Source of the DNA: a virus
Length of the DNA stretch: 64,000 nucleotides
Direction: 5' to 3' (one strand)
IMG/VR virus record: IMGVR_UViG_3300021180_000005
Span: 39,650-103,649 of that record
This document shows, one piece after another, positions 18,580 through 38,720 of this stretch. The notes below the pieces were generated by a model that searched no databases, was not told where the DNA came from, and saw nothing but the letters and a program-made list of their open reading frames with translations. Every line of letters starts with the position of its first letter. Position 1 is the stretch's first letter. The position numbers and the translations under genes were made by a program.

Positions 18580-18655
18580 TACCTCCTTCAAAGGTCGAGA
18601 AGGGAGCAGTTGAAGGCTGCTCCCAACTCTGACTCAGGATTATAAGCCCTGAGGT
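18580..18655 (-). promoter_or_regulatory. Kissing-loop SD-sequestering RNA element, copy 1
   Basis: Stem GGGAGCAG/CUGCUCCC, loop CCUUCAA complementary to UUGAAGG in the ACCU/AGGU hairpin that covers the SD. Confidence 0.8.
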
Positions 18656-18664
18656 ATTAAAAAT

Positions 18665-19507
18665 TTACTTCTTTTCCATAGGCAGTTGAGGCGATGGCTG
18701 AGTCATAGTTTGTTTTGGGGCGTATTTCAAGTTCTCCGTAGCTTCAAAAGCTTGTGCCCTAGAACGTACACCTGCCTTAATTGCAGAATCCCAGTCTCCA
18801 ACGCACAGCCCACCACCTTCAAGAGCGTGGAACGGTGCTCCAACTTTGGCAGGTTGGCCACAACGTGGGCAACTGTCTAGGTGGACCTCGCGTTTATGCC
18901 AGTTAAAAGTTTCGTGAAAGTATTCAGCCGCTGCGTGATGCGCCGGGGTTAACATTGCTGATAGTGACGCAGGATTAGAAGTCTCTACTGCACGTGCTTC
19001 TGTAAGAAGTCCACGGTAATGCTGTTCTAACCTACGTGTAGCAGCGGCTAGCTCTGTCTCATTAGGCTTCTCGTTGGTAGACCAGAATACTCCCAGTCTT
19101 CCTAGATTTTGACCAACAGAGAAACTATTGGTAATGACTGCGTCTTGGTCTAAAGAAAGATTGTCAGGATTGACAATGTCCATAGCCATGCGACGACCAT
19201 CGATAACAACAATATCGATATCGTTTGAGTCTACATTTCCCTTTGGGAACTTAAAAGGAGAAGGTAGTGAGGTAACTACGGCGTACTTTTCCCCTTCCTT
19301 ACGTGCCGGAATGATCATCTCTTTGATCAGCGGTAGGCGGGAAATCTTATATTCTTGCTTTGCGATGTTGAATAGATATACAAAAAAATCTGCTGGGCGA
19401 CTAAGCATATAGTCGGCAGTAGAAAAGTTCCAATCAATATTGTTGGCTCTAGTCATACCGTCGCTTAGGTCTGGTCGTCCCTGAGGTCTGCTGCATGTTG
19501 CTTCCAT
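18665..19507 (-). CDS. Hypothetical protein (structural module)
   Basis: 280 aa ORF with strong SD AAGGAG; CxxC near C-terminus. Confidence 0.7.
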   Translation of the reverse strand: MEATCSRPQGRPDLSDGMTRANNIDWNFSTADYMLSRPADFFVYLFNIAKQEYKISRLPLIKEMIIPARKEGEKYAVVTSLPSPFKFPKGNVDSNDIDIVVIDGRRMAMDIVNPDNLSLDQDAVITNSFSVGQNLGRLGVFWSTNEKPNETELAAATRRLEQHYRGLLTEARAVETSNPASLSAMLTPAHHAAAEYFHETFNWHKREVHLDSCPRCGQPAKVGAPFHALEGGGLCVGDWDSAIKAGVRSRAQAFEATENLKYAPKQTMTQPSPQLPMEKK

Positions 19508-19548
19508 TTGTTACTCCTTGAGTCTTCTGAGTTTGTAATTCTTAGTTG

Positions 19549-20280
19549 TTAAACAGGGTTGGTATGTGCTGATAATCCACGTCCGAGTTTACTTGCCGTG
19601 GTCATCATTTTATTCCAATTCCTTTGCATAGCTTCTATTTTTTTGTCAATCAGCGCAGTACGACACCCTTGACGCTGATAAGATACAGGATTTCCCTTAA
19701 ATGGTACTGCGTTGCTTCTCATAACGTCTTCTATCATGGCAATATCTGCTTTATCTTCTCTTTCTTTCAAATCTGCCATAACGGCCTTGGTTTTTTCCCA
19801 ACTGATGTCTTTAGCCGCCACTATGATAGGAACCACTGTGTCTAGAAGGAACGTATTGAGAGGCATCATCTCAAATAAGAGCTTGCCGTTTCTCATTTCA
19901 CTCCAACGTAAATTGTAAAGCATTTGATAACGTCCACTGTATGGGTACTCACCTAGTATCTGCAAACCGGAATCTTCATCAAAGTTTTGTATATAATAAA
20001 TTTCCGGTGTACCATACTCCAACGCGTCGTGCCATTGTAAAAGTGCCCAGCAGGGAACTCCTCCCCCTATGAGAAGGTCTCGGTACCCTGTATAACCTAT
20101 CTGGTCTTCTCCAGCCCATGCACCTCCTGCTCTGTACATAGACCGTGGGTCTCCACCTTGCGACCAAACCAGTAAAAAGTTTGGATCATCATAGCGGTTA
20201 ACCCCACCAATAGCCGTGAGTCTTTCTTGAAATTCTTCAGGGCATAAATTCTGCTGGTAACTAGCTGTTAGACTGGGCAT
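19549..20280 (-). CDS. Hypothetical protein (structural module)
   Basis: 243 aa ORF with SD GAGG. Confidence 0.7.
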   Translation of the reverse strand: MPSLTASYQQNLCPEEFQERLTAIGGVNRYDDPNFLLVWSQGGDPRSMYRAGGAWAGEDQIGYTGYRDLLIGGGVPCWALLQWHDALEYGTPEIYYIQNFDEDSGLQILGEYPYSGRYQMLYNLRWSEMRNGKLLFEMMPLNTFLLDTVVPIIVAAKDISWEKTKAVMADLKEREDKADIAMIEDVMRSNAVPFKGNPVSYQRQGCRTALIDKKIEAMQRNWNKMMTTASKLGRGLSAHTNPV

Positions 20281-20545
20281 TATTCATTGCCTCTCGCTGT
20301 GCTTGTACTTGCGCTTTTTTCACTTCTACATACACGTCAATTTCCTGACGATCTGTAATTCCTAGTTTCTTTTCTAGGATGAAGTTAAGCAGTAACGCTG
20401 CAGTGTCTGCCATGCCCATAAGCTCATTGTCATTAGAAGCTAGCTTCATAAACAACGTGTGTGCCTCACGTCTGGACATAGGAGCATCCCAGTACTTATC
20501 GTAAGGTTGTTGAATCGGTGAATCTGAACTTATGATCTGAGTCAT
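20261..20545 (-). CDS. Hypothetical protein
   Basis: SD AAGGA; ATGA overlap. Confidence 0.6.
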   Translation of the reverse strand: MTQIISSDSPIQQPYDKYWDAPMSRREAHTLFMKLASNDNELMGMADTAALLLNFILEKKLGITDRQEIDVYVEVKKAQVQAQREAMNNAQSNS

Positions 20546-20949
20546 TTGTTCCTTTCAATATAATCAGCTACTTTTCTCATCCTATCAGGATTGTCATTGA
20601 ACAAGCCCATACCTCTGTTGCATTTAGTATGTACTATACCTCTTATTTTACCTGTCAAGTGGTCATGGTCTACTGGAGGGAATCTATCGCCGTTTTCTTT
20701 CTCAGGTAGAGGTTCTTCGCAGGCTGCGCATAACCCTTTCTGCTCTTTCCATCTTTGTGCATATTGCTCTGGTGTTAATCCAAAGCTACTTTTTAATGAG
20801 CTTTTTCTATGGGATTCTATGGTTTTTTCTGGATTTCTATTTCGCCATTCCTTAGTATGTGTGTTCTTGCACTCTAAGCAAACTAATCTCCCACCCTGTT
20901 GCACCTTAACATGACCCTGTGGACATGTAGATGTACTTGGCCTACCCAT
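20542..20949 (-). CDS. Endonuclease VII-like homing endonuclease
   Basis: QKGLCAAC...VDHDHLTGKIRGIVHTKCNRGMGLFNDN. Confidence 0.88.
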   Translation of the reverse strand: MGRPSTSTCPQGHVKVQQGGRLVCLECKNTHTKEWRNRNPEKTIESHRKSSLKSSFGLTPEQYAQRWKEQKGLCAACEEPLPEKENGDRFPPVDHDHLTGKIRGIVHTKCNRGMGLFNDNPDRMRKVADYIERNK

Positions 20950-21580
20950 TGCTACTTTCCAATCCTTCTTCTGCGGTGTTTTCTCTTTCTACCATACGTA
21001 TGTCCTGTACACGTACCACGCGTAAGCCTTCTGGGTCTGGTTCATAGTTCATTTGCACTGAATCACAGAGTACTTCTACTTTTTTCTCATCCATAATGAA
21101 TACCTCTGAGTTGTAATCACCATAGGTAACACGATCTCCTACACGTACCACATCTCTCATGGGTATTTTCTGTCCACCAAGGATTACGAATTGTCCGACT
21201 GCAAGCACAATACCTACATTAGAGTGCTGTCTGTACTTCGCAGCAATGACAAGTCCTGTCTTTGTGTTTAGAACGCTGCCATCTTCCATGATCTTCATGT
21301 CTGAGTTTTCTGCACATCTCTTAATCAGTACACGGTCAAGAATAGGTGATCCCGAAGCATAGGTCTTATCTGGGTATTTCTTTGGCGCTAATGGAGCTTC
21401 TTTAACCTCTGTAGATAACCAATTAGTACGCCTATCAATGACTGTTATACCTGAACCAAGTTCTTGTGGTTCTTCTGGTGCTACATTTCGTAGTTCAATC
21501 GGATCGTTTACTGTGCTTCCACCTGCTGAAAACTGTGCACTGCGTGCGCCCCTAGCTAGGGAATCGCCTCCGTTTAACAT
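20942..21580 (-). CDS. GroES/Cpn10-like co-chaperonin
   Basis: PILDRVLIK, TKTGLVI, GIVLAVGQ, VRVGDRVTYGDY, VRVQDI match the Cpn10 fold, with insertions. Confidence 0.75.
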   Translation of the reverse strand: MLNGGDSLARGARSAQFSAGGSTVNDPIELRNVAPEEPQELGSGITVIDRRTNWLSTEVKEAPLAPKKYPDKTYASGSPILDRVLIKRCAENSDMKIMEDGSVLNTKTGLVIAAKYRQHSNVGIVLAVGQFVILGGQKIPMRDVVRVGDRVTYGDYNSEVFIMDEKKVEVLCDSVQMNYEPDPEGLRVVRVQDIRMVERENTAEEGLESSNG

Positions 21581-21708
21581 GATTGAGTCTCCTGAGTCTT
21601 TTAATGTAATACTACCCCGGCTATCCAGTCTCGGCGTGTTTGCGCAAGGAGACTGGGGCCGAGGTTATGCCTGCACTAGGCGCAAACCTACGCAGGACAA
21701 AGTTGTGC

Positions 21709-21742
21709 AAAACAAAAGGCCCTGCGAGGTTTAGCAGAGCCT
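21709..21742 (-). terminator. Probable intrinsic terminator
   Basis: Minus strand AGGCUCUGC-loop-GCAGGGCCU followed by UUUGUUUU. Confidence 0.55.
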
Positions 21743-21749
21743 GTGAATC

Positions 21750-21962
21750 TTAAACCAATTTTGCCAACTCCGCTTTAGCTGCGGCGACTACCTTAACCGC
21801 ATCCGCGATGATCAACGGGTTAAGCTTATTAAGGTCCGTTACAATGGCCGCTTCTACTATTGGCGCTTCCTTCACAAACGCAGCCTTAATCTTTCGTCCA
21901 ATGCTAGGCGTAAACGCACCTACTACGTATGCTGCTACGCCACCTGCAATGAGTTCTACCAT
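21750..21962 (-). CDS. Small membrane-anchored hypothetical protein
   Basis: SD GGAGG + ATG 21962; hydrophobic N-terminus. Confidence 0.55.
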   Translation of the reverse strand: MVELIAGGVAAYVVGAFTPSIGRKIKAAFVKEAPIVEAAIVTDLNKLNPLIIADAVKVVAAAKAELAKLV

Positions 21963-21988
21963 ACAATTACCTCCACGGGGGTTAAAGG

Positions 21989-22501
21989 TTACTGAGTACT
22001 GTTGTGTTTCTGAGTCCAAAATCTAAGGTATTGCATTGCCCGGTCAAGCCATGTACCGGGGATGGGTGTGAAATCTCCCTGAGCTAGTAGTATTTCTAAA
22101 TTACCCAGCTTATGGTTGCACTCCCAACACAATAATCCACGAAGGCATTTTCCACATGACACTTTTCTATCACAACATGAATGTTCGTGGTCAATGTGCA
22201 ATCTTACGTGAAAACCTGTACCCTCAGTTGCTGGGCACAATGCACAGTGTCCTTCTTGCAACTTTAACTTATCTTCGTAGTAATTTTTAGGAGCATGGTG
22301 CTTTCTGGCATTGCCATACTTTTTATAAAGAGACTTATCGCGCTCTTTTGCTCCTTCTCTGCACACCTTACAGCCTTTGTTAAATCTTGAATCCTCTTCA
22401 AATGTTTTGTGGAACCCACACCACTTCAGACCTTTATCTTTTGCTTCTCTGTACGCCTCTGTAGTGATGCCATATTTATATAGTCGTGCTTGTCTTCTCA
22501 T
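21989..22501 (-). CDS. Endonuclease VII-like homing endonuclease
   Basis: HCALC...HIDHEHSCC...SCGKCLRGLLCWECNHKLG. Confidence 0.88.
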   Translation of the reverse strand: MRRQARLYKYGITTEAYREAKDKGLKWCGFHKTFEEDSRFNKGCKVCREGAKERDKSLYKKYGNARKHHAPKNYYEDKLKLQEGHCALCPATEGTGFHVRLHIDHEHSCCDRKVSCGKCLRGLLCWECNHKLGNLEILLAQGDFTPIPGTWLDRAMQYLRFWTQKHNSTQ

Positions 22502-22504
22502 TTT

Positions 22505-22575
22505 CTCTCCTCTGCAAAGGTCAAGCAGGGCCTGTTGCAGCAGGCCCCACTCTAGTACTGGGTAATTAGTCCAGC
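22505..22575 (-). promoter_or_regulatory. Kissing-loop SD-sequestering RNA element, copy 2
   Basis: Stem GGGCCUG/CAGGCCC, loop CUGCAA pairs with UUGCAG in the CCU/AGG SD hairpin. Confidence 0.8.
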
Positions 22576-22590
22576 AATCTTTACTTCAAT

Positions 22591-22619
22591 AGTATAGCAC
22601 AAGACGTGTAGAGCGTCAA
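22591..22619 (-). promoter_or_regulatory. Sigma70-type promoter
   Basis: TTGACG-17 bp-TATACT with TG extension, directly upstream of element copy 2. Confidence 0.75.
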
Positions 22620-22677
22620 GTGCTACACTAAGGGATGTCAGGTCTCTACACCAAGACATCAAACTTCTAAATCACGA

Positions 22678-23568
22678 TTAGATCGTGGGAACAGCAGCGT
22701 TCTGTACATAAAGTCCAGCACGAGGGGCGCTATTTGCTAAGTTGAAGCACGTATTATAGGCAAACATATGGCTGGTCAAATACGTTCCGTTCGTGGTACC
22801 CACGTCAGGTACGGGTGCAACCACATTGCCGCCGCCGAAGTCATAAAGCTCCAGAGGAGAAAGCTCGCCAATGTACCAATTCTCCATGATTAGGAGGTCC
22901 ATACGCGATGCAGTTGCTGTGGCAGACTTGTGGTACTTACGTCCACCGAACGTGTCCGAGAAATAACGCTTGGACATGTCCAGAGTCTTCTCGCCCTTAA
23001 CTTCCTGAGCGTTTACGATCTGAACGTTGTACATCAAGTTACTCTGTGCAAATGCCTGCTCAAGAGGACCATACCAAATGCCGCTCTTTAGCGACTCTGC
23101 ATCTGGACCGAGTGCTCGTGTCAACAGTACTTCTGCACGTTGCGCGATTCCGGGGGTAATTGCTGCGCCGTTCAGGTTAATGGTTGGCGTGCTAAGACGA
23201 CCGGGGTACGCGTTGCGGTTCAGCCCACCGATGGTTCCAGTGTTGCTGTTAACATCCCAAGCCTTAATACCTAGGATGGAGTTTCCGCTGCCGTACGATG
23301 CACCAGCTACGACGATGTAATCGGTAACAACTACGTCAGAAGGTAGAACGGTGCTGAAATATAGAGTGTTGCTAGGGCCATCAGAGTAGCTGATAGTTGC
23401 CTGTGTAACACCACCAGTACGTTGGACTCCACCTGTGCTGTAGAACTTTACGACCTGTTGATCGGTAAAGGCTACTGCAACGTTGATACCAGCAATGCTA
23501 GCAGTCTGGGAAGCGGGTGATCCGCCGCTCAGTACAATGGTAGCTGTTGCAGGAATCTGGTCGATCAT
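22678..23568 (-). CDS. Major capsid protein, exon 2
   Basis: Follows intron terminal G (23569); in frame with exon 1 giving ...NSDGTG/MIDQIP..., about 444 aa spliced; downstream of portal and scaffold. Confidence 0.8.
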   Translation of the reverse strand: MIDQIPATATIVLSGGSPASQTASIAGINVAVAFTDQQVVKFYSTGGVQRTGGVTQATISYSDGPSNTLYFSTVLPSDVVVTDYIVVAGASYGSGNSILGIKAWDVNSNTGTIGGLNRNAYPGRLSTPTINLNGAAITPGIAQRAEVLLTRALGPDAESLKSGIWYGPLEQAFAQSNLMYNVQIVNAQEVKGEKTLDMSKRYFSDTFGGRKYHKSATATASRMDLLIMENWYIGELSPLELYDFGGGNVVAPVPDVGTTNGTYLTSHMFAYNTCFNLANSAPRAGLYVQNAAVPTI

Positions 23569-24261
23569 CAAATATGTTGCGCCGTTTCGTTTGTATAAAC
23601 GGCTCTCGTAATTACTTACGAGTTCAGACTATATCATACCTTTACGGTTCAACTGTACAAGTTGATCTCTTAGTTCTTGTCTCTTTTGGTGAGCCTCAAT
23701 GTATATAGGACTGTCTGTAGTCAGCTTCAATCCCTGCTGACATCCATTTCTTCCTTCGTATACCCGCTCAAACTCTAAACCAATAAGAGCCTGCCGCTTC
23801 TTTATCACTAGATAAGGAAGCATTGTTTCAAGAACTGCTATTCGATTGTTCTTACCTTTAGGCATCCATGCGTATTGTGTTTTGCAGTTGTTCTTGTTTT
23901 TAGAGCAACTAACAGAGTACATACCACCAAAATTACTAATCAACCACTGCATCAACTCTAGGTTGGTGTTTGCTATCTTCACGTTCATCTGGAAGATGGT
24001 TGTGTTGTTTTTGTTGTGGCTAGTACTGATACAAACGGTGCCTTCACCATCGAACAGCCCAGCCAGATACGACCAGTGCGTTTCATTTGAGTTTTTCATA
24101 AAAGTTGTAGTGCTTCGGTCTCACTTGAGACCTACTCCCTTGCGGGATAGTCGTTACACCTTCCTCAGTTCCGAGGAGCGGCTCGGTATTGTCTGATATA
24201 CGATTCTATTATATCAGGTTTCCACCGAATTCTCTACATTTTACACGGGCAGATTTTGTTT
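23569..24261 (-). mobile_element. Group I intron (693 nt) in the major capsid gene
   Basis: P1 CACGGGU/GCCCGUG with U-G at the 5' splice site; P GAAUUCGGUG, Q AAUACCGAG, R AACGACUA, S GAUAUAGUC (P7 GACUA/UAGUC); terminal G. Confidence 0.92.
23629..24099 (-). CDS. Intron-encoded LAGLIDADG homing endonuclease
   Basis: WSYLAGLFDGEGTV, LPYLVIKKRQA; stop codon overlaps the S element. Confidence 0.93.
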   Translation of the reverse strand: MKNSNETHWSYLAGLFDGEGTVCISTSHNKNNTTIFQMNVKIANTNLELMQWLISNFGGMYSVSCSKNKNNCKTQYAWMPKGKNNRIAVLETMLPYLVIKKRQALIGLEFERVYEGRNGCQQGLKLTTDSPIYIEAHQKRQELRDQLVQLNRKGMI

Positions 24262-24705
24262 ACCCGTGCCATCACTGTTGATCAAACCTTCGATACCCTG
24301 CATTGCTGCATCCAAAGAGTTCTTCATTTCCTGTGCTTTGACAGCGAAGAGACCCTTCTGCTTGGAATCTGTGGAAGCCTGAGCTAGCCAAGAGATTTCG
24401 CAAACGTTGAACAGGTATACTGGGGCCAGAGCGAAGGAAGCCCATTGTGAACCGCTGCCACGTAGCATGCTATCTGCGTTGCCAGTGCCTTGTGAAATTG
24501 CCGCACCAGCCTGTACCCGGAAAGGTACGCGGAATGATGCACGTTGTGTCCCGCCAGCGTTCGACTGGTTGGATACAGGAATCTTTGTTGCTTCAGCCTT
24601 GAACATGCTGTATGCGGTAGTTCCGTGGAAAACTAGATCGGGAATTTCCTTAGCAAACGCATCAAGTTCAACTGCTTCTACTGCTGCTTCTAAAAGTGCT
24701 GCCAT
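24262..24705 (-). CDS. Major capsid protein, exon 1
   Basis: 148 codons ending GAT GGC ACG GGT at the splice site. Confidence 0.8.
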
Positions 24706-25163: not shown

Positions 25164-25182
25164 ACTTTATTCCTCTTTTAGT

Positions 25183-26699: not shown

Positions 26700-27134
26700 T
26701 TATTTCTGAGTCTTGTACTTCTCTATATAGTCTGCGGCCATTCTGAGTATAGTAGGGTTGTCTTGAAAAAGTCCTAAAGCATGGTTACAAGAAGAACACA
26801 ACAATCCACGAGGAACCGGAGGCACAATGTGCTCATGGTCAGCATGCGGAGTATTAGTGAACTCTCTAGTGCATATTGCACAGCGATTATTCTGTTCTAT
26901 CTTTGCTTTTTCTATAGACTCCTGAGTCCATCCAATTTTAAGTAAACGTCTATTTTGTTTTCTTTTATAGAGTTCGACTTTGTTTTCTTTCCAGTACTTC
27001 TTGTGGAGTCTACTTTTGGCTTCACCTTGGTATGTAGCTTCATAACACGACCTACATAAACCTTTGGCATGGTGTTTTCTCTCAGGATGACACGTGTTCA
27101 CCTTGAGTTTTCTTACAAAAATTCCTTTTGGCAT
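26700..27134 (-). CDS. Endonuclease VII-like homing endonuclease
   Basis: QNNRCAIC...HADHEH..PRGLLCSSCNHALGLFQDN. Confidence 0.88.
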   Translation of the reverse strand: MPKGIFVRKLKVNTCHPERKHHAKGLCRSCYEATYQGEAKSRLHKKYWKENKVELYKRKQNRRLLKIGWTQESIEKAKIEQNNRCAICTREFTNTPHADHEHIVPPVPRGLLCSSCNHALGLFQDNPTILRMAADYIEKYKTQK

Positions 27135-27137
27135 TTC

Positions 27138-27212
27138 TTCCTTCCTAATCAAGTTCGTACGGGGAGAGGATTAGGCTCTCCCCGTACTAGCTCAAGGGAG
27201 CTACCCTTGAGA
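27138..27212 (-). promoter_or_regulatory. Kissing-loop SD-sequestering RNA element, copy 3
   Basis: 12-bp stem, loop CCUAAUC pairs with GAUUAGG in a CUU/AAG hairpin. Confidence 0.8.
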
Positions 27213-27214
27213 TT

Positions 27215-29806
27215 TTATGCTATTGGTTCTTCTAATGCTTTTGGAATTGCCTTGCCTGCTATCTTATGATCTAACGCCTCTGCTGCATGTTGTGCAAACA
27301 TTTCGGGTGTAGATTGTACGCTCATTTTTGCAAGCAATTGCGTAGCTACTGGAGGAGGCATCTTGCTTATATCGGCGGAAATGCTCTCACTTGGTGGCTT
27401 TGGAGGAGGCTGGTTAGCTGCTGCAATTTTCTTTGCTTGTGCTAAATGCTCCATAAAATGCAAGTGTACATTGGCAAAACCTGCCTGTTGTTCTGGTGTT
27501 CCCCAGCGGAATTTTTGTCCCTCGATAGAATTTAACCACTCTCCGCATTCACTTGCCTCTACGCTATGATTCTCACTTTCATCCTGCGCAACTGGCACGG
27601 TGCTCACCTGCTGTGGCATTGATTGCATACCCTTTTGCAGCTGATCTACCATAGCTGCTGCTTGTGGTGGCACTTGCTGTCCACTCAAAGCTGCAGCCTT
27701 CATACCTGTAGTGACTTTTTCCAGTCCAACTTGCATTTGAACAAGTTGTGGGTTAGGCATAGGTCCGCTACGTAGAAGTTTTTCAAATTCGCATCTCTGT
27801 TTAGTTACAGAAGATGCTCCTTCTACTTTGAAGTTCTTCAAACGCAAAGCGCTTGATACTTCTACTAAATTAGCAGGGCTGAATATCCACTGTGCAAACG
27901 GTGTTCCGGGTGCGGTAATTGCTTTATCAACCAAGCTCATTACCTTTACCGATTTTTGTTCTTCAGTTTCTGGAATAGATGGGTTGCTTTCTGGATAACA
28001 CAGCACATTGCCGCCTAGCAAGTTTGCAGTGTTAACAGATATGTTCTTACCATCTATGTTCTGTTTTATTTCTTTACCATCACGGCACTCTGCTGCACAT
28101 TTAACAGCCTGTGCGGCTGCAGCGGCGAACATGTCCTGAATATTATTCCATGGACATCCTACGCGCTGTAGAGCTTGATCCCTTTGAATAACAGCGTTTC
28201 CTACTGTATTCTCTCCTGTAGCGTTACCAAACAGGGAAGGAAGTGCTCCTGATATTTCTTCAGAAAGTGTAGTGATAAACCATTTGATGAAATCCGGCAA
28301 CGCTGGTTGGTGCTGTGGCGTTGGTTCCACCATGATATATTGTGATTCTGTAGTCAACCCCGGTTGTGGTAGAAATGGCCCTATACTGCCGGGAACGTTG
28401 GGTTCTTTCTTAATAGCATCCATATCGAATGCTTCAGAATTCATCCACTTCTTTGGTACTGTACGCTTAAAGAAGTCGTCTAAAAGATCAACCCAATCGT
28501 TAATTCTTTTTTGGACGGAAATTAACGCAGTGCCCATGGCTCTGCGATTTTGTCCTTTGCCTGCCGAAGGATGTCCTATGACTATATGGTCATCCATCTT
28601 CTCGTTTCTTGAGAAGGCGTACTCTTGTCCAGCGCGTGCCAATAGAACACCGTCTGGAAATGCTTCTAGTAGTTCTGCTTTAACTTCATCGCCAACGGAC
28701 TGGTCGAGAAACATTGATGGACGCATCCATGTATACTTAACAGTGGTATGGCGACTCAATGAATCTCCGGTTACGTATGCACCAAGTACTGCCTGTCGTA
28801 CGTTCTCTCTTGCGATACGGTCTAACTGTGTCGCTGATTGACCGTCAGTGCCGGGACTAATTTTGCTTGCAATCCATGGGAACATACCACGAACCATAGC
28901 AACATCATAATCCAGCATCAGTTGTACATACTGCATCTCAGAGAAGTTATCCACAGATATAGGAACCTTATGGTCTAGTTTTCCGTGTACTGTAGTTACT
29001 TCCATACCAAGGGGCTTCTTGGAATTATTTCCTACTCCTGCCGAATTTAGAAGTCCCTCTATCTCTCCTCCGGTTTCTGCGGCGGATTCTGTGGTCTCTA
29101 AGAAATCCTCCTGTCCTTCTTGTCCGGTAGGTGTGCTGTCTGGAGGGTTAAGAATGTTCTCAGGTACAGTTGGTGTTCCCTGATCTTTCTCAAAACCGTA
29201 CTTCTGTCCGTTCAGCTCATATCTCGTCCACATCAACGTGCGATCTTCATTCCAAAATACTCTTGCGCATTGCACTAGTAAATCGTGAAGATTATTATTT
29301 CTTGACCATATGTCTTTGAATCTAGCAGCTTCTTCGGCTGCTATCTTATCTGGTCCCCACTCCGGGTCTACGGGAAAAAATTCTACCTTAGGTATCTCTC
29401 GTGACAGTGCAGAGACAATAATGTCTCCCTTTGGTCCGTACACGTTTGTGTCGTATATGCTATTGTGATTTCTCTCGTTGGCTTTCTTTCCTTGTCCGCC
29501 TCCGGGTAGTTCCCAACCTCCTCGCTTACCACGAAGAAGATGCTGATAGCCTCTCTCAAAATGAAGAGCTTCCCATGCTTGCTCAACTTCCATACGTCGT
29601 GCAGCTACATCTGCTTTCGTGCAGATATCATCAAGCGCAATCAACGTACCTCGTGCTGTGTCTGATAACTCAGCAAACGGCTCTGGAGAATAAGGGAATG
29701 GCGCATATACTCCCAGTGGACTATCGTTAGGAGACTCTGGTGCATCACCTTGCTTATTGGAACCTTCAGCCTCTAGTCCTGTTACCTCTGAAACGTCGTC
29801 TGCCAT
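27215..29806 (-). CDS. Portal protein
   Basis: 863 aa downstream of terL, Gln/Pro-rich C-terminal extension typical of P22-like portals. Confidence 0.75.
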   Translation of the reverse strand: MADDVSEVTGLEAEGSNKQGDAPESPNDSPLGVYAPFPYSPEPFAELSDTARGTLIALDDICTKADVAARRMEVEQAWEALHFERGYQHLLRGKRGGWELPGGGQGKKANERNHNSIYDTNVYGPKGDIIVSALSREIPKVEFFPVDPEWGPDKIAAEEAARFKDIWSRNNNLHDLLVQCARVFWNEDRTLMWTRYELNGQKYGFEKDQGTPTVPENILNPPDSTPTGQEGQEDFLETTESAAETGGEIEGLLNSAGVGNNSKKPLGMEVTTVHGKLDHKVPISVDNFSEMQYVQLMLDYDVAMVRGMFPWIASKISPGTDGQSATQLDRIARENVRQAVLGAYVTGDSLSRHTTVKYTWMRPSMFLDQSVGDEVKAELLEAFPDGVLLARAGQEYAFSRNEKMDDHIVIGHPSAGKGQNRRAMGTALISVQKRINDWVDLLDDFFKRTVPKKWMNSEAFDMDAIKKEPNVPGSIGPFLPQPGLTTESQYIMVEPTPQHQPALPDFIKWFITTLSEEISGALPSLFGNATGENTVGNAVIQRDQALQRVGCPWNNIQDMFAAAAAQAVKCAAECRDGKEIKQNIDGKNISVNTANLLGGNVLCYPESNPSIPETEEQKSVKVMSLVDKAITAPGTPFAQWIFSPANLVEVSSALRLKNFKVEGASSVTKQRCEFEKLLRSGPMPNPQLVQMQVGLEKVTTGMKAAALSGQQVPPQAAAMVDQLQKGMQSMPQQVSTVPVAQDESENHSVEASECGEWLNSIEGQKFRWGTPEQQAGFANVHLHFMEHLAQAKKIAAANQPPPKPPSESISADISKMPPPVATQLLAKMSVQSTPEMFAQHAAEALDHKIAGKAIPKALEEPIA

Positions 29807-31863: not shown

Positions 31864-31864
31864 G

Positions 31865-32569: not shown

Positions 32570-32578
32570 AGACCTCCT

Positions 32579-32953
32579 TTAACTCTTGGAGGCCACTGCG
32601 GCTTCCTCTGCTAATTCTTTTTCTATTTGTAAATCATGTGCTTCAACTTCCGCTTGCCAACTTGTTTTGACAGGTGGGGAAGTAAACGATGCGAAACTGG
32701 GCTTCTCTGCGCGTTTACGTGTAGGGTCAATACCTACCCTTGCGTTGATGTTTAATTCGTACATTGAGATTTTAGTTTGGAGAAATGATTTTTCGCTTCT
32801 TAGCTCTGCTATAGTTTGGTCTTTGTCTTGTCGTAGTGCTTGGTTTTCCATTTGCAGTCTAAAAATCTCCGCTTGCATTATCTCTGCTAGACGTGAACCA
32901 AACAGTTTTCTGAGCGCTTCCCTAAACGCCTGCGCTGCATTCACAATGCTCAT
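32579..32953 (-). CDS. Coiled-coil hypothetical protein
   Basis: ATGA overlap with terL stop. Confidence 0.6.
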   Translation of the reverse strand: MSIVNAAQAFREALRKLFGSRLAEIMQAEIFRLQMENQALRQDKDQTIAELRSEKSFLQTKISMYELNINARVGIDPTRKRAEKPSFASFTSPPVKTSWQAEVEAHDLQIEKELAEEAAVASKS

Positions 32954-34626
32954 GCTGAGTCCTTCCCCATCCACACTGGCTGGTCCTGCGGCTTAAATGA
33001 TAAGGTTTTGTTTGCTGCCTCTGCATCTAGTTTCATTTTTAAGAAATGCGCCGCAAGGGGATCATTCTTCTTTAATGCAGCTATTCTCTCTGCCTCTGCT
33101 TGCGCTTCTGGTTTTTTCTTTGCGGCTAAATGACCATACAGACCATAACGCAGAGCATCATAGCAGTCGTCCCCTTTTGCGTCTACTTTTAGAACATCGT
33201 CTAAATTGTCTGGGTCACGCATTAAGGTTGGAATAGCAAGTATAATTTCTTTACAGGTATCTAAGAAAACCAGCTCACCCTTTTTTAGCATATTGTACAT
33301 CAAGGATGCAGAACCAATACGGTCCCTAGTGGCAGGTGTCACAGAAGGCAAACCTACTACTCGTAATGCACGTGAGTACTCATCTGCTGGTGATCTAGCT
33401 TCCATCTGTCTAGCAAATTTTTCATGAGAAAAATATATGGCTTTAAGTTTGAAAGTTTGTCCATTTGGGAGCTTACATTTAGCTTGAAGGATAGACACTA
33501 GCTGATCCATGGTCTTACCTCCAGTTACAACTATTTCTCCAAAGCAAACTGTTTTAAGTTTATAATCTTCTCCTACCGAGTTCTTAACCATCGCTTTTGT
33601 AAATAAATATAAAGCATTTGCATGCTGTACTCCCCAGTCATGTCCTGCCCATACTGGTTGATAGTCTTGCCAAATTATAGCTTCTGGGTCTTCTCTTAGA
33701 TTTATAACGTGATAGTATGAATCAAACACGTCAAAATATTGCCCCTCTACTGTTCCATCTAAGCCGAGAAGCATTTTATCTCGCTTCGCCTTAGGCATAG
33801 ACATGAGTCTGGAAATAATTCCGGGATCACGTTTTAGCAGTTCAGTGTTATCCATCACTGTAGAACGTTGACAGGCGTACTTACTTGGGTCGTAAATGCA
33901 CCGCCATTCTCCGCCTTCGGTTACCCACCATGTGCCATTGGTTTCATCCTTGCGTGCATCCTCAGGCTTATCCCATGGCTCTTTTTCTACAAAAAGTTTT
34001 CTATAGTATTCATAGTGAGGCCCAAGTGGATTGCTACATCCAATAATTACTGGAACCGGAAGATTACCCGCCTCATCGCGTTGGCAACCGGGATTAATTA
34101 TGTTTCTAGAATACAACATTAACCACGCATCTGCTGAGAACTGTCCACACTCATCTACTAAAATTCCACAATATGCTTGTCCTAGATATTGAGCAATATC
34201 TTTTTCTCTTAAGTTGTTGCAATGCCCAAATATAATTTTGGAACCATTTTTAAAAGTAGCTACGTGCTTTGTTTGGTCGTAATCGTATAGTTCTTTTGGT
34301 ACGAAAGTACGAAAGTCGCTAATGGCCCCTGCCTCTAGTTCCTTAAAGGTTCTGCGAAGGACAAGAACATTACACCCCGAAAATTGTAAACAATAATGCA
34401 TGGTTAAATAAAGTAACCAACCTGAGGTTTTACCGCTACGAATGCCGCCAACACTTAAGACTTGCTGTGCCACAGGCTGGACATAAACTTTACCGTTCCT
34501 CATTACATTTCTAAGCAGCTCCGTCTGTTTCGGTTGAAATCTGAATATCTTCTCGAAGTTAAGAGTACCGTCAGCGTTGATATACGCAGGACGTTCTCCT
34601 CCCTCGATTATTTTTTTTCTAGGCAT
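32950..34626 (-). CDS. terL: Terminase large subunit
   Basis: Walker A GGIRSGKT, Walker B GILVDE, coupling CSNP, nuclease GHDWG and DDCYDALRYG; start reassigned to ATG 34626. Confidence 0.93.
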   Translation of the reverse strand: MPRKKIIEGGERPAYINADGTLNFEKIFRFQPKQTELLRNVMRNGKVYVQPVAQQVLSVGGIRSGKTSGWLLYLTMHYCLQFSGCNVLVLRRTFKELEAGAISDFRTFVPKELYDYDQTKHVATFKNGSKIIFGHCNNLREKDIAQYLGQAYCGILVDECGQFSADAWLMLYSRNIINPGCQRDEAGNLPVPVIIGCSNPLGPHYEYYRKLFVEKEPWDKPEDARKDETNGTWWVTEGGEWRCIYDPSKYACQRSTVMDNTELLKRDPGIISRLMSMPKAKRDKMLLGLDGTVEGQYFDVFDSYYHVINLREDPEAIIWQDYQPVWAGHDWGVQHANALYLFTKAMVKNSVGEDYKLKTVCFGEIVVTGGKTMDQLVSILQAKCKLPNGQTFKLKAIYFSHEKFARQMEARSPADEYSRALRVVGLPSVTPATRDRIGSASLMYNMLKKGELVFLDTCKEIILAIPTLMRDPDNLDDVLKVDAKGDDCYDALRYGLYGHLAAKKKPEAQAEAERIAALKKNDPLAAHFLKMKLDAEAANKTLSFKPQDQPVWMGKDSA

Positions 34627-35083
34627 CTGAGTGCTTTCTACATAAGTCTGTTCGGAAAGCTGCGCTACAGGTAGTACCACAAAACTTTTTCTTTTTTGTC
34701 TGTGCAGTAATTGGTGCACCACATTCCCAACAGCTTATTGTCCATGGTTTTCTTAACAAAGGTCGCCCAGTTCTCCCAATTCCACGTGGAGCATGGTGAA
34801 CTCTATGCTCCCTAACAGGAAGCAGCTCATAGTTACTTCCGTCAATTGGGTTATTAAGTGGATTTTCATCTTTATGATGCACTTCAAACCCTTCATCAAT
34901 GCTACCGTTTTTGCTTTCATAAATAGCAACATGAAGGTACGTTTTAATTCCCTGTCTCCAACCTTTGTAATAAACTCTATCAGACCTTCGTGCGGATTCT
35001 GGGTATCTGTAATAAATAACATCTTCGAACACCACAGTTTGTGAAACAGCAGGCGTACGGTCTTTTCTAAATCCTTTTGGCAT
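34619..35083 (-). CDS. HNH homing endonuclease between terS and terL
   Basis: YLHVAIY...VHHKDENPLNN...NYELL..EHRVHH; C-terminal CxxC..CxxxC. Confidence 0.85.
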   Translation of the reverse strand: MPKGFRKDRTPAVSQTVVFEDVIYYRYPESARRSDRVYYKGWRQGIKTYLHVAIYESKNGSIDEGFEVHHKDENPLNNPIDGSNYELLPVREHRVHHAPRGIGRTGRPLLRKPWTISCWECGAPITAQTKKKKFCGTTCSAAFRTDLCRKHSDA

Positions 35084-35089
35084 TGCTTT

Positions 35090-35168
35090 ACTCCTCCATT
35101 AAAGGTCGAGGAGAGCGGTGTTAATGGCACCGCCCTCTACTCTGCTCCAAGCTGATCAAGGCTTGGGA
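35090..35168 (-). promoter_or_regulatory. Kissing-loop SD-sequestering RNA element, copy 4 (overlaps terS stop)
   Basis: Stem GAGGGCGGUG/CACCGCUCUC (G-U only on the minus strand), loop CCAUUAA pairs with UUAAUGG. Confidence 0.8.
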
Positions 35169-35668
35169 TTTGTATGTACATCCAAAACTTCTGCAAAGCT
35201 AGGCTTAAGAAGTTCCTTAGGTTTTTCCTCTATAATTTCTGGGTGCATCAACTGTGGAGCTTGTATAACTACTACTTTCACTGCTTGATGTGTGAGCTTG
35301 TCCAACTCTTGCTCTGATGGGTCTTCCTTTCCTAGGCCTCTACGCATAAGTATCTCGTACGCCTTAGCCGCAGCCATCATGGCTTTGGGATCAGAGTCGG
35401 GATTCTGCGCTATACGCAGCATGTTCAAAGTAGCTACATCGCATTCGGATAATCCTTCTTTACCTTTTTCTTTACTGGGTGAGTAAAGAATTTTCCTTAT
35501 GCGTCTCGTAAATTCAATTGTTGGTATTAGTGGTTTAGGTTTCTTAACAAAATGTCCTTTATCACTACGCAACATTTCTCGAACGCCACCTTCTTTTGTT
35601 TTTACTACAACTAAAGAAGTACCTTCAGGCAACTCCTGAGATATTGGTTTTGGTTCTGAATTAGACAT
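35156..35668 (-). CDS. Putative terminase small subunit
   Basis: Upstream of terL; KGHFVK N-terminal motif, helical core with AAAKAYEIL.RGLGK. Confidence 0.6.
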   Translation of the reverse strand: MSNSEPKPISQELPEGTSLVVVKTKEGGVREMLRSDKGHFVKKPKPLIPTIEFTRRIRKILYSPSKEKGKEGLSECDVATLNMLRIAQNPDSDPKAMMAAAKAYEILMRRGLGKEDPSEQELDKLTHQAVKVVVIQAPQLMHPEIIEEKPKELLKPSFAEVLDVHTNPKP

Positions 35669-36077
35669 TTGCTCCCCATTTCCTAAGATAGCTTAAAGCT
35701 AGATGCATGAACTCTGTGTTCTCTATAGAACCGAGCATCGTATTGCACCTATTGTGTAATAAACCTCTAGGTGTTGGAGGATCATTATGCTTATGGTCGG
35801 CACAAGGTGTCTCATTTTCTTCAAAAGGCTGTTTACAAAGATCACAACAATTATTCTGTATAGACTTTGCTTCTTCTATTGAGTCCGGTGTCCATCCTAT
35901 TTTATTCAGTGCTGATTTTCTAGAGCTTTTTATATGGCTGTTTCTAAATTCTACATCATTTTCATATCTATCTTTATATCGCTTTTTCTCAGTTAGTTTC
36001 AAACACTTAATGCAGGCCTTATTCTTATCTATGTTTCCCGTTGTTCTTTCGTGACCACGTTTACAATGTGTTTTCAT
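35661..36077 (-). CDS. Endonuclease VII-like homing endonuclease
   Basis: KTHCKRGH, QNNCCDLC, ADHKH..PRGLLHNRCN. Confidence 0.85.
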   Translation of the reverse strand: MKTHCKRGHERTTGNIDKNKACIKCLKLTEKKRYKDRYENDVEFRNSHIKSSRKSALNKIGWTPDSIEEAKSIQNNCCDLCKQPFEENETPCADHKHNDPPTPRGLLHNRCNTMLGSIENTEFMHLALSYLRKWGANV

Positions 36078-36079
36078 TT

Positions 36080-36152
36080 TACCTCCAATAAAGGTTGAAC
36101 CTAGAGTGTATTGGGCACTCTAGGCTCTGCGTTGGGTAATTAGTCCAACGAT
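36080..36152 (-). promoter_or_regulatory. Kissing-loop SD-sequestering RNA element, copy 5
   Basis: Stem CCUAGAGUG/CACUCUAGG, loop CCAAUA pairs with UAUUGG in the ACCU/AGGU hairpin. Confidence 0.8.
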
Positions 36153-36155
36153 TAT

Positions 36156-36485
36156 TTACAGCTTCTTAAACTGTGATAATGCAGCGTCAAAAATGTAAGA
36201 AGTTTTTTCTAGAGCATACTTCTTGAATAAACCTTCTATATAATCTGTATACTGTTTTGATTTTGTCTCAGTGATTTTACTTAGGCGTTGAATCTCTAGC
36301 TGGGCCTTTAGATATTCTAATTCTGCCTCTCGCAAAAAGAGCTTTTCTTCCGCCGTGATGTTTACCAGAGCAGCCTTAACAGCTTCCTCGGCTTTAACAA
36401 CTTCACCTTCGATTTTTTCAACTACAGACTTTGCTTCTGTCTCAACTGTTTTAACTACGTTTTCAACTGCTGTTTCTACGCTCAT
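36156..36485 (-). CDS. Coiled-coil hypothetical protein
   Basis: SD AGGAG + ATG 36485. Confidence 0.6.
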   Translation of the reverse strand: MSVETAVENVVKTVETEAKSVVEKIEGEVVKAEEAVKAALVNITAEEKLFLREAELEYLKAQLEIQRLSKITETKSKQYTDYIEGLFKKYALEKTSYIFDAALSQFKKL

Positions 36486-36511
36486 ATCTGAGTTCTCCTG
36501 AGTTTTATTTA

Positions 36512-36847
36512 TTACCAAACATCAACGAACGCTCCTGCATTTGCTAGGCGTTTCATTTCTTCCTGAAAAACTTCCCCATGATCTGCTCTGGGTTTTGATA
36601 CATGTACCATTTCATGCAACAGGTCGGCAACTACATAACGCATAGATTTTACCTTGGTTCTCTGAATCAAAACAACCGGAGGTTTATCTGCATAAAAATA
36701 TGTAGATGCGCAGTTGCTTTTTTCTGGACTCTTGCTCTTGCCTATTCTACGCACGAAAAATAATTTGGTACCAACAGGCAGTTCGTTGCTAAAGTACTTC
36801 TCGTTATAAATATTATATAAACCTTTTAAATAAGACGAAGCACGCAT
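36512..36847 (-). CDS. SprT-like zinc metallopeptidase domain protein
   Basis: YNEKYF..ELP, LLHEMVH, HGEVFQEEMKRL. Confidence 0.75.
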   Translation of the reverse strand: MRASSYLKGLYNIYNEKYFSNELPVGTKLFFVRRIGKSKSPEKSNCASTYFYADKPPVVLIQRTKVKSMRYVVADLLHEMVHVSKPRADHGEVFQEEMKRLANAGAFVDVW

Positions 36848-36934
36848 ATTTACTACTCCTATGCTCACCGCGTTCGCTTTCGAGCAATATGGAGCGAGGC
36901 ATAATGCTACGCGGCCTCTGCGCATATAAACGAC

Positions 36935-36962
36935 AAAACCTCACCCGGATTAAAGGTGAGGT
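36935..36962 (-). terminator. Intrinsic terminator
   Basis: ACCUCACC-loop-GGUGAGGU followed by UUUG on the minus strand. Confidence 0.6.
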
Positions 36963-36964
36963 CT

Positions 36965-37281
36965 ATTTATTTCTTAAAATGTCCCGCTGTCAGCGTCAAA
37001 TGACGGCTTACAAACTTTAGGGAGCGGGTTATTCCCTTACGTATCCAGTTGGCCGTAGCGGGATACTTGCGCCTTTGTCCGCTGGTACTTGGCAAGCCAT
37101 CCACGGACGAGCAGAAGAAGGGATGATCACTCCCAAAACATCTGCAATGCCCACGTTCCGCCACGCCTTGCGTGAATCGTGTGGGACTTTCGACAGAGGA
37201 CTGCCGTCCTTCATTGTCGAATCTTTACAAATTGTTGTGCGATTTTTGTAAGTGTCGCCCTTAAACGCCAAGCGCTCCACG
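36965..37281 (-). ncRNA. Candidate structured ncRNA (~320 nt)
   Basis: Consecutive hairpins, no credible ORF, ends at terminator. Confidence 0.5.
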
Positions 37282-37479
37282 TTAATAAATTCTATACCCG
37301 TTTTTCTTAGCCTGTTCTAATTCTACTACACATTCATCTCTGACTTCTGCGGAAATATGTTGTGTAGTTGCGAATTCTATTAAATCAGACATTCTTTGAT
37401 CGAACTTCTCAAGACTGCTCTCATTTACCGCTTTCAACAAGAAAAGCGGTTCGTCATCTTGTGGAATATCGTTACTCAT
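37282..37479 (-). CDS. Hypothetical protein
   Basis: ORF in late-operon orientation. Confidence 0.45.
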   Translation of the reverse strand: MSNDIPQDDEPLFLLKAVNESSLEKFDQRMSDLIEFATTQHISAEVRDECVVELEQAKKNGYRIY

Positions 37480-37975
37480 GTTGGGCACTTTCTTGCTGAG
37501 CCAACTTTTCATTTGTTAACGCAAAATCTTTGTAGTATTTTAAAGCTGCAATGTCGTATGCAGTAACAGCTAATTCCTGAGTATCAAAATACCCTAAATG
37601 TACTTCTTTATTATTTATATGTATGCGCGATCTCCACTTTTCATGAGACTTACTCCACGATACACCTTTATACTTTTGTTTAGCTTTTCTGTTGTAAGAA
37701 TTCTGCTGTCCTGTAGCCGAACGCAAATTGTGGCGCTGACAATTAAGACCATTCCTGTCTTCATGGTCTACTTCGGGTTTTTGCCCACCGGGAAGTCATA
37801 AAATAAAACGATGTAAAGATTGAACTCCTTGTTTTCCTCCTACTCTTGGAGTACTACGCTGAGCATACACAGTGTTCTTCCTTACAGAAGCAAACCATCT
37901 ATACTGTACCGCACGTTCAAAATCTTCGTCATCGACTAAAGCTACATAACCTTGTGTTAATTCAATTGTTTTCAT
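37472..37975 (-). pseudogene. HNH-AP2 endonuclease with one in-frame TGA (37798-37796)
   Basis: MKTIELTQGYVALVDDED...LHRFIL*LPGGQKPEVDHEDRNGLNCQRHNLRSAT...YKGVSW...HLGYF..AYD: two track ORFs in the same frame. Confidence 0.85.
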
Positions 37976-37979
37976 ACTA

Positions 37980-38040
37980 ACCTCCACGAAAGGTTGAGGG
38001 CGGTATTCGTGGTACCGCCCTCAGTGTTGCATCTCAACTA
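37980..38040 (-). promoter_or_regulatory. Kissing-loop SD-sequestering RNA element, copy 6
   Basis: 11-bp stem, loop CCACGAA pairs with UUCGUGG in the AACCU/AGGUU hairpin. Confidence 0.8.
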
Positions 38041-38299
38041 TGAGTCTTACGACTTTTGATTTGCTGCTCACTGTCTATTGTGCAAACTTTTCACTGCTCA
38101 GGTGGTGTGCCTGATTGTCCTCCAACAAAGGAGGGATGTCATAAAGTCTGGGTGAGACGAGGCGGCAGTTTCGCCGCCTGCTGTACAGCTACGCCTCAGT
38201 CTCTTAGCGCCGGGGCTACAACTCCCAAAGGAGAATAAAGGAGGAACCCCGGCGTTTGCTATCTTCGGCGTTGCGCCGTATGTTGCGGTAAAGAGTTCG

Positions 38300-38650
38300 T
38301 TATTTATATTTCAATATGTAAGCAGCTGCTTGCAGCAGCATTTGGGGACTATCTTGAAATAGTCCAAGTCCTCTATTGCAATTGGAACACAAAATTCCTC
38401 TTGGCTTAGGAGGTTCAGTGTGCTCGTGATCGGCGCACGTTTTATTACTGTCTAAACCCTTGTTGTTGTGCAAAGGTTTTTCACAGATGGCACATACGCC
38501 TTTTTGCTCATTGAACTTTTCGTTGAATTTATCTCCACTCCAACCTTTTGCTTTCAATCTTCTCTCGCGCTCATCTACAGCACAGTGCTTGCGCAGTTGA
38601 TGGTTGTGTGGGTCTTGTTTGCCCAGTTTGGGCCAACCTACTTCTTTCAT
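38300..38650 (-). CDS. Endonuclease VII-like homing endonuclease
   Basis: QKGVCAIC, ADHEH..PRGILCSNCNRGLGLFQD. Confidence 0.88.
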   Translation of the reverse strand: MKEVGWPKLGKQDPHNHQLRKHCAVDERERRLKAKGWSGDKFNEKFNEQKGVCAICEKPLHNNKGLDSNKTCADHEHTEPPKPRGILCSNCNRGLGLFQDSPQMLLQAAAYILKYK

Positions 38651-38654
38651 CTTG

Positions 38655-38720
38655 TCCTTCCCTAAAAGGTAAGCCTAGTCTTTAGGGCGACTAGTCCGAG
38701 ATGTGGAATGCACACACTTT
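38655..38720 (-). promoter_or_regulatory. Kissing-loop SD-sequestering RNA element, copy 7
   Basis: Stem CUAGUC/GACUAG, loop CCCUAAA pairs with UUUAGGG in the CCUU/AAGG hairpin. Confidence 0.7.

Follow-up and report, generated by a model that had tools for sequence, protein, structure and literature searches.

In an uncultured phage, a family of structured leader RNAs of about 90 nt precedes nuclease genes within the virion operon. Each leader probably acts as a cis-acting translational lock on the nuclease and is carried by the nuclease cassette; judged from the sequences, this reading is given a probability of roughly 0.65. The phage is known from one virus record of 103,649 bp (IMG/VR IMGVR_UViG_3300021180_000005; estimated completeness 93%), and the window analyzed here is the right-hand 64 kb of that record (64,000 nucleotides, positions 39,650 to 103,649). 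From 5' to 3', the leader contains a hairpin P1, a hairpin P2, a CCU, a partner of the P2 loop that runs into the Shine-Dalgarno (SD) sequence, and the ATG. The lock is proposed because the covarying helix between the P2 loop and its partner ends in the SD, the remaining part of the SD faces a complement, the genes behind the leaders are selfish nucleases in a virion operon, and precedents exist in T-even phages and insertion sequences (IS).

Architecture of the leader

The leaders are labeled c1 to c7 in window order, and c9 is an orphan copy outside the window. The original prediction listed seven loop and partner pairs upstream of seven start codons. Read on the minus strand, all seven pairs are exact. 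They are CCUUCAA/UUGAAGG, CUGCAA/UUGCAG, CCUAAUC/GAUUAGG and CCAUUAA/UUAAUGG for c1 to c4, and CCAAUA/UAUUGG, CCACGAA/UUCGUGG and CCCUAAA/UUUAGGG for c5 to c7. The count of seven copies holds for the window; the genome contains nine, two of them beyond the window, as found with a covariance model and a looser scan. By the covariance model, all nine genomic copies are on the minus strand, which is the coding strand.

A strict scan was performed for a hairpin of at least 8 bp with at least 6 loop nucleotides complementary to a sequence within 12 nt downstream, followed by an SD and a start codon. The plus strand of the genome has no such site and the minus strand has eight, seven of which are leaders. 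The mean over 40 dinucleotide shuffles of the genome was 0.025 sites. The sole non-leader site is an unrelated 8-bp hairpin in a divergent promoter region (window 38948-38980, minus strand, start 38972), and 6 nt of its loop are complementary to a stretch 3 nt downstream.

Across the nine copies, P1 either begins 0-12 nt after the stop codon of the upstream gene or has this stop codon in its loop, while c2 and c7 are located instead right behind sigma-70-like promoter matches. P1 is weak in c6 and c7 and is poorly formed in c6. In the window copies, the P2 stem has 6-12 uninterrupted pairs and a loop of 6-8 nt. The loop consensus is CCNNNAA and the partner is UUNNNGG, and UUNNNGG shares its final GG with the start of a strong GGAGG SD. 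The partner ends in the GG of GGAGG or GGAG, 5-11 nt upstream of the ATG, in all cases. In the seven window copies, the partner is followed by AGG(U/A) or AAGG, with the ATG 5-11 nt further on.

The shared architecture was first described as P1, P2, a short linker and a small hairpin P3 whose 3' arm is the SD. P1, P2, the loop partner and the SD were all recovered in the present analysis. The segments taken as linkers around P2 are paired, and P3 is reduced to CCU/AGG. The GAG of (C/U)AGAG pairs with the CUC of CUC(G/A), and both belong to the P2 base. The basal P2 pairs change together, as GUACG/CGUAC in c3 and as GCGU/ACGC, GACUC/GAGUC and GUGUG/UGCAC at three other loci (L025, L024 and L065). 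The full P2 has 11-16 layers, often with an internal mismatch or bulge, and its base is flanked by AG and (G/A)A. The gap between the P2 base and the conserved CCU is 1-2 nt. P3 has three invariant pairs; in 29 of 33 sequences the outer A-U pair proposed for it does not form, and there are 1-2 compensatory events. P3 never varies because its AGG is the SD. Read from the sequence, the CCU and the CC of the loop together spell CCUCC, the anti-SD of 16S rRNA.

Nested folding predicted P1 and a full-length P2 in all nine genomic copies. In c1 and c5, a local hairpin ACCUUU/GGAGGU was also predicted, with the variable triplet as its loop, which in the folding model is an alternative burial of the same SD. 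On the opposite strand, the P1 sequences of c3, c4 and c5 (window 27191-27211, 35146-35167 and 36130-36150, plus strand) form a terminator-like hairpin with a T-rich run; they are scored as such because the sense 5' flank is A-rich. These hairpins could stop antisense transcription, or the resemblance could be a coincidence.

Covariation across the family

Related copies were searched with a pattern that fixes the 3' flank only (CTCRACCTTTNNNGGAGG) and leaves the hairpin and the three N free. In the viral collection, this pattern matched 94 stretches. Nine of these, each from a fragment of a related phage, have a P2 hairpin with a 7-nt loop exactly complementary to the partner. The remaining stretches lack the hairpin and are chance matches. 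With a longer pattern in metagenomes, the exact complement was found in 32 of 118 among the matches listed, with at least 11 different triplets. A covariance model of P1 and P2 recovered further copies outside the patterns in these loci. Together, the covariance model and the two pattern scans, which placed no constraint on the loop, added about 60 distinct copies from uncultured relatives of the phage. IMG/VR contains 30 contigs with a terminase 62-81% identical to that of the window.

Among 67 distinct copies with a recognizable P2, loop and partner form at least six contiguous Watson-Crick pairs in 60 and seven in 50. The copies below six pairs are truncated, are mis-detected hairpins, or are decayed with the SD and start codon also lost. 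The family has 27 or more different loops, and 1% of the non-cognate combinations of loop and partner reach six pairs.

Covariation was measured in two alignments, A3 with 23 copies and A7 with 35 metagenomic copies, which have three contigs in common. Compensatory changes were found in six of six P1 pairs, in seven of the 7-8 P2 pairs, and in 5-6 of the seven pairs of the loop-partner helix. In A7, the loop-partner helix is 93% paired. At its three central positions, 15-16 of about 30 sequences carry double changes, and all four Watson-Crick types are represented. None of 500 shuffles equaled the observed covariation on any measure. When the 3' partners were slid by 1-3 columns, the pairing dropped from 86-92% to 37-52%. 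Covariation, for which a test was called for at the outset, is thus present in P1, P2 and the loop-SD helix alike. Conservation is limited to the helices, the junction CUA, the SD and the anti-SD pieces (alignments A3, A4 and A7), and the middle of the loop varies freely.

G-U pairs occur in P2 and in the loop-partner helix. The G-U pair noted earlier in the P2 stem of c4 is real, and it becomes C.A if read on the plus strand. The G-U pairs and the single orientation indicate an RNA-level feature of the sense transcript, in agreement with the earlier claim that the element acts as RNA.

Association with nuclease genes and mobility of the cassette

The genes downstream of the leaders were tabulated as had been suggested. 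Nucleases were found in at least 25 of 28 open reading frames (ORFs) of at least 40 aa, and they belong to the Endonuclease_7, GIY-YIG, HNH, HNH_3/AP2 and HNH_5 families. One leader is therefore common to at least four unrelated endonuclease families, and the portability claimed for it is supported. Several families are also represented in the window itself, as described originally: Endonuclease_7 behind c2, c3, c5 and c7, HNH_3 behind c4, a PHROG HNH type behind c1 and an HNH_3-like type behind c6. All eight leader-bearing nuclease genes of the genome are inside the minus-strand virion operon.

The two loci with empty sites in relatives demonstrate that the leader travels with the nuclease gene, since both are absent from the empty sites. 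At the c4 locus, the terminase directly follows the preceding gene in two relatives (L098 and L099). The window and a third relative (L097) have about 500 extra bases at this position, which are the leader from the P1 loop onward and the nuclease ORF. The last four codons of the upstream gene form the 5' arm of the c4 P1, and the UGA stop codon of this gene (35158-35156) is in the P1 loop. The c4 nuclease ORF extends 8 nt into the terminase gene and terminates there at a stop codon produced by synonymous changes in terminase codons 2-3. At the c5 locus of two relatives (L112 and L104), two genes are separated by a 9-nt spacer that contains its own SD. In the window, the leader and the nuclease gene stand in place of that spacer, and the 3' end of the nuclease gene provides a new SD for the downstream gene, replacing the native one. 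There are nine leader copies in this genome, one in a near-complete relative and none in a 75%-complete relative. Because the empty sites lack both the leader and the gene, and because the copy number differs in this way, the leader is, by these comparisons, part of a mobile cassette with a free-standing homing endonuclease gene.

The sequences at which the two nuclease ORFs end in overlap with the downstream phage gene are AUGCCUAG for c4 (34619-34626) and AUGUCUAA for c5 (35661-35668), both on the minus strand.

A genome-wide search with four nuclease families found about 18 nuclease-like genes, eight with a leader and about ten without. The leaderless genes lie in the plus-strand early region, have their own promoters, share bases with the preceding gene (window 20949), or are located in a probable group I intron (24099). 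The leaderless Endonuclease_7 and GIY-YIG genes at genome 85243 and 86381 (window 45594 and 46732, minus strand) are antisense in the plus-strand early region, each behind a TTGAC-N17-TATA(C/G)T promoter-like site.

A weak group I intron match was found at window 23605-24271 on the minus strand (20.5 bits, E 0.23). It encloses an HNH ORF (23629-24099; phrog_5046, 3.7e-29) and sits between the ORFs 24241-24705 and 22678-23571. An intron carrying a leaderless nuclease gene may interrupt a structural gene here. Clear group I introns were found in relatives (L025:970-1184, 75.6 bits; L065:454-1083). In the first of these, a complete group I intron core (L025:970-1334, plus strand) ends about 60 nt before a leader and a GIY-YIG gene. 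Some cassettes may be located at or inside the 3' extensions of introns.

Geometry of the loop-SD interaction

The loop of P2 pairs with a sequence 3' of its own hairpin, and this pairing is supported by covariation, as in an H-type pseudoknot. The geometry was evaluated with ideal A-form phosphate coordinates, a rigid-helix estimate that is relaxed by fraying of 2-3 pairs. The path from the base to the top of P2 over the shallow groove is about 34 Å for 8 bp and 42-45 Å for 11-13 bp. At least 5 fully stretched nucleotides are needed for 8 bp and at least 6 for 11-13 bp. The connecting loop is 8-10 nt when the basal P2 pairs are open, which is sufficient, and 4-6 nt when P2 is complete. In a coaxial stack of P2, the loop-partner helix and P3, about 19 bp would have to be bridged with no more than 7 nt.

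The original prediction described a kissing complex in which P2, the loop-loop helix and P3 are all formed at once. This part of it was not supported, since P3 is without covariation and the linker is too short in the rigid-helix estimate. In the model, an H-type pseudoknot with the base of P2 open, or two alternative conformers, fits better. With a short linker and a long P2, the pseudoknot would need the base of P2 to be open, or would form part of the time.

Proposed function and alternatives

The proposed mechanism would work through a double masking of the SD. The CC of the P2 loop would pair with the GG of the SD, and the conserved CCU would pair with the remaining AGG; CCU and CC would together imitate the CCUCC anti-SD of 16S rRNA. 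With the SD buried in the pseudoknot, or in the ACCUUU/GGAGGU hairpin, 30S subunits would be kept off, and the nuclease output would be low regardless of how strongly the surrounding operon is transcribed or translated. The anatomy of the leader suggests both a repression of translation and, through it, a smaller burden from a nuclease gene residing in the virion operon. The earlier idea of a silencer or switch that permits residence in this operon is plausible and fits the gene distribution. Leaders c2 and c7 are directly behind their own sigma-70-like promoters, the two best such matches of the region, which argues that the lock would not only be a guard against read-through.

Several observations weigh against a lock of this kind. 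P3 has no covariation support. A complete P2 leaves 4-6 nt to cross (ACCU in c6, GACCU in c2 and GAACUU in c3). The gene at window 20949 and the intron-borne gene at 24099 are in the same operon and have no leader. Leaders with perfect pairing are kept before a broken gene (c6) and an 11-codon stub (c9). Finally, a plain weak SD would equally give low expression, and the elaborate design hints at something beyond a constant throttle.

A conditional two-state switch is the main rival reading, and it is considered possible, if rather unlikely. An open state, with the full P2 and the SD free or in a weak hairpin, would alternate with the locked loop-SD state, which would restrict nuclease synthesis to a particular time or context. 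The triggers considered were co-transcriptional folding order, a ribosome at the stop codon near P1, an RNase cut, temperature and a protein. The basal P2 pairs and the loop-partner helix both covary, which indicates that both are under selection, and with a linker of 4-6 nt the A-form geometry hardly lets both helices coexist. The prediction of P1 and a full-length P2 in all nine copies and the upstream stop codon near or inside P1 also point to a switch. T4 homing endonucleases are turned on late by a transcript without the inhibitory arm (PMC2988022). On the other hand, no trigger was found for the leaders, and no promoter motif is conserved inside the element. The stop codon is mostly too distant for a terminating ribosome to reach the P2 base. 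Conserved unpaired nucleotides, as expected for the pocket of a ligand or protein, are missing from the leaders, and the genome has no second copy of a loop or partner as a key in trans. The coexistence argument itself comes from a rigid-helix estimate, and fraying of 2-3 pairs permits both helices.

In its most developed form, the switch would be an addressable two-state riboregulator, in which the basal P2 and the loop-SD helix are mutually exclusive and work as a mechanical switch. This form is put forward tentatively. If it is true, the 3-nt address would prevent cross-pairing among the many locks carried by a single polycistronic late mRNA, and nuclease synthesis would be timed or context-dependent rather than just throttled.

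It is improbable that the fold mainly serves the phage genes or the transcript instead, be it through RNase III-type processing of a quasi-continuous helix, through protection by a 5' or 3' hairpin, or through insulation against sliding of terminating ribosomes. Any such module would limit polar damage from the insertion. P1 is exactly at the upstream stop codon, or at the 5' end of the two promoter-proximal copies; the cassette swaps the native downstream SD for one from the 3' end of the nuclease ORF; and intact leaders are present where the nuclease is broken or gone (c6 and c9). These observations would agree with a role in the transcript, but this role leaves unexplained the covarying partner that runs into the nuclease SD and the anti-SD mimicry of CCU and CC. 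Moreover, no U-tract follows P2, and no cleavage evidence was found. That the inverted repeats act as DNA, in the form of a homing or recombination site, a single-stranded DNA hairpin or a cassette boundary signal, is very improbable: the c4 insertion does have its 5' junction within P1, at a site that resembles the 5' arm of P1 even when empty, but the G-U pairs are strand-specific, all copies are in sense orientation, the partner is the SD and the covariation is of the RNA type.

Other candidates were tried and rejected. For a trans-acting key, 9-mers of the loops and partners with their flanks were found elsewhere in the genome only at chance level and in no consistent context. For a decoy or parking site of the loop within the leader, inspection of nine copies gave partial and inconsistent matches only. 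For P2 as an intrinsic terminator, a consensus scan picked c5 and c7 only, neither with a real U-run. For a conserved internal promoter, the P1 loops are UAUAAU or UAUAAA in some copies and UUAGCGG, UAAUUA or GUUGCU in others.

Leader copies and other features of the genome

The positions of all leaders and of the genes behind them are listed in Table 1. The c7 gene is the first gene of the minus-strand operon. The HNH_3-like gene behind c6 is a pseudogene or a read-through case; the frame runs on beyond the TGA through the HNH motif, and the c6 leader is intact. Downstream of the orphan leader c9, there is only an 11-codon ORF and then a terminator-like hairpin with a U-run. A leaderless HNH gene starts at genome 19855, about 590 nt beyond c9.

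Table 1 Leader copies, downstream genes, promoter-like sites and other RNA features. Positions are window coordinates unless stated otherwise; leader bit scores are from a covariance model built on P1 and P2 only.
Feature	Position	Strand	Details
Leader c1	18575..18665	-	P2 core 18624-18602, loop 18616-18610, partner 18591-18585; SD AAGGAGGU; ATG 18577; 85.2 bits
HNH-type endonuclease gene behind c1	17993..18577	-	194 aa; PHROG HNH families phrog_374, phrog_1035, phrog_3118
Leader c2	22499..22588	-	loop 22540-22535, partner 22517-22512; ATG 22501; 62.7 bits
Sigma-70-like promoter TTGACG-17-TATACT directly 5' of c2	22591..22619	-	10/12, TG extension; consensus match only
Endonuclease_7-family gene behind c2	21989..22501	-	170 aa; PF02945, 7e-10
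Leader c3	27132..27223	-	12-bp P2 27187-27157, loop 27175-27169, partner 27150-27144; ATG 27134; 57.6 bits
Endonuclease_7-family gene behind c3	26700..27134	-	144 aa; 1.2e-15
Leader c4	35081..35179	-	loop 35127-35121, partner 35102-35096; ATG 35083; 63.4 bits
HNH_3 endonuclease gene behind c4	34619..35083	-	154 aa; stop overlaps terminase start 34626
Leader c5	36075..36162	-	12-bp P2 36127-36097, loop 36114-36109 paired with 36090-36085; ATG 36077; 69.1 bits
Endonuclease_7-family gene behind c5	35661..36077	-	138 aa; 7.1e-10
Leader c6	37973..38063	-	11-bp P2 38023-37995, loop 38012-38006, partner 37990-37984; ATG 37975; 41.1 bits
HNH_3-like gene behind c6	37697..37975	-	in-frame TGA after codon 59
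Leader c7	38648..38728	-	P2 38694-38675, loop 38687-38681, partner 38666-38660; ATG 38650; 35.1 bits
Sigma-70-like promoter TTGACA-16-TATACT directly 5' of c7	38735..38762	-	11/12; consensus match only
Endonuclease_7-family gene behind c7	38300..38650	-	116 aa; 2.3e-14
Leader outside the window	before gene L002:17735-18520	-	261-aa GIY-YIG endonuclease gene
Orphan leader c9 (outside the window)	L002:293-535 (genome 20293-20535)	-	perfect 7-bp loop-partner match
Circularly permuted two-piece tmRNA	62714-62997	+	RF04321, 79.4 bits, gathering threshold 47
tRNA	60011-60095	+	

The hexamer ACUCAG was found 0-4 nt before about ten minus-strand starts, for example at window 34626, 36485, 32953, 21298, 12249, 10398 and 8705. 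These include the true terminase start at 34626, and AGGA or GGAG often precedes the hexamer. ACTCAG occurs 49 times on the minus strand and 23 times on the plus strand.

Significance

Among the selfish genes of large phages, those for homing endonucleases are the most common. To our knowledge, the tolerance of many homing endonucleases in essential, highly expressed operons is understood only for a few T4 cases. One leader over at least four nuclease families, with exceptionally clean covariation across 27 or more loop addresses, points to a general modular solution, in which the cassette would supply its own strong SD together with its own lock. In metagenomes, the leader also serves to recognize free-standing nuclease cassettes and to place their 5' borders. 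Its small size and its swappable 3-nt address would make it an easy system for the study of translational control by pseudoknots.

Comparison with known systems

The leaders were compared with the Rfam database (Rfam 15), in which a match would have removed their novelty. No family matches them, int-alpA (RF02996) included. At gathering thresholds, the whole window gave the permuted tmRNA and the tRNA only, and with lax cutoffs (E<=5 for window 17.5-39.5 kb, E<=10 for window 35050-36200 and E<=1 for five related loci) none of the leaders was matched. In the GenBank phage collection, 12 kb of the region had no megablast match, and the terminase matched only at <28% identity. Leader c1 had no blastn match among 50,697 phage records, a search for which short structured leaders are poor targets. 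Literature searches on homing endonuclease leaders with loop pairing found no description of such a leader.

TAR-TAR* and the ColE1 RNA I/RNA II pair are fully paired loop-loop complexes. Similarly, all 6-7 nucleotides of the hairpin loop in the leader are paired with a complement. The known complexes are formed by two separate hairpins of free geometry, whereas the second hairpin of the leader is a 3-bp invariant stem tethered 1-2 nt from the base of an 11-16-layer P2. A closed kissing form is sterically unlikely under the helix model.

The preQ1-II and SAM-II pseudoknot riboswitches sequester the SD. In these riboswitches, and in the cobalamin kissing loop, a loop or pseudoknot helix includes the SD and sets the access of the ribosome, as is proposed for the leader. 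However, the riboswitches have a conserved unpaired ligand pocket, whereas the leader has none and has no metabolic gene context.

Transposable elements provide a second parallel. Transposase mRNA of IS10 is subject to fold-back inhibition, in which the SD is sequestered. In IS200, a stem-loop of the 5' untranslated region sequesters the SD of the transposase mRNA (PMC4513863). In both IS200 and IS10, a mobile element masks the ribosome binding site (RBS) of its own enzyme in cis against transcription from outside, as the leader would do. The IS structures differ in being plain stem-loops or long-range pairings, often with antisense RNAs in addition, and the enzymes and folds are different; a family of pseudoknots between a loop and the SD is not known among them.

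The closest parallel is in the homing endonuclease genes of T-even phages and phage Aeh1. RNA structures that mask the RBS control I-TevI, I-TevII, I-TevIII, segB and the mobE of phage Aeh1 (PMC2988022). In both cases, the strong SD of a selfish endonuclease in a polycistronic phage message is buried in RNA, and the presumed purpose is the limitation of nuclease synthesis. The SD of the leader is likewise in a stable local structure, with GG against the CC of the loop and AGG against the CCU. The T-even and Aeh1 structures are simple local hairpins, unrelated in sequence, each used for one gene and bypassed by a late promoter within the hairpin. No conserved promoter-like motif was found between the P2 loop and the SD of the leaders, where the phage's own late promoters may differ in consensus. 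The promoters of c2 and c7 are 5' of the entire leader, so their transcripts carry the complete lock. In contrast to the T-even hairpins, the leader has a conserved three-part form shared by at least four nuclease families, a loop 20-25 nt upstream that holds the SD, a pseudoknot topology, a copy-specific 3-nt address and no conserved internal promoter. Masking of the RBS of homing endonucleases is thus known, and what is new is a portable pseudoknot leader with a free 3-nt address across nuclease families. The leader is a well-supported candidate for a new Rfam family.

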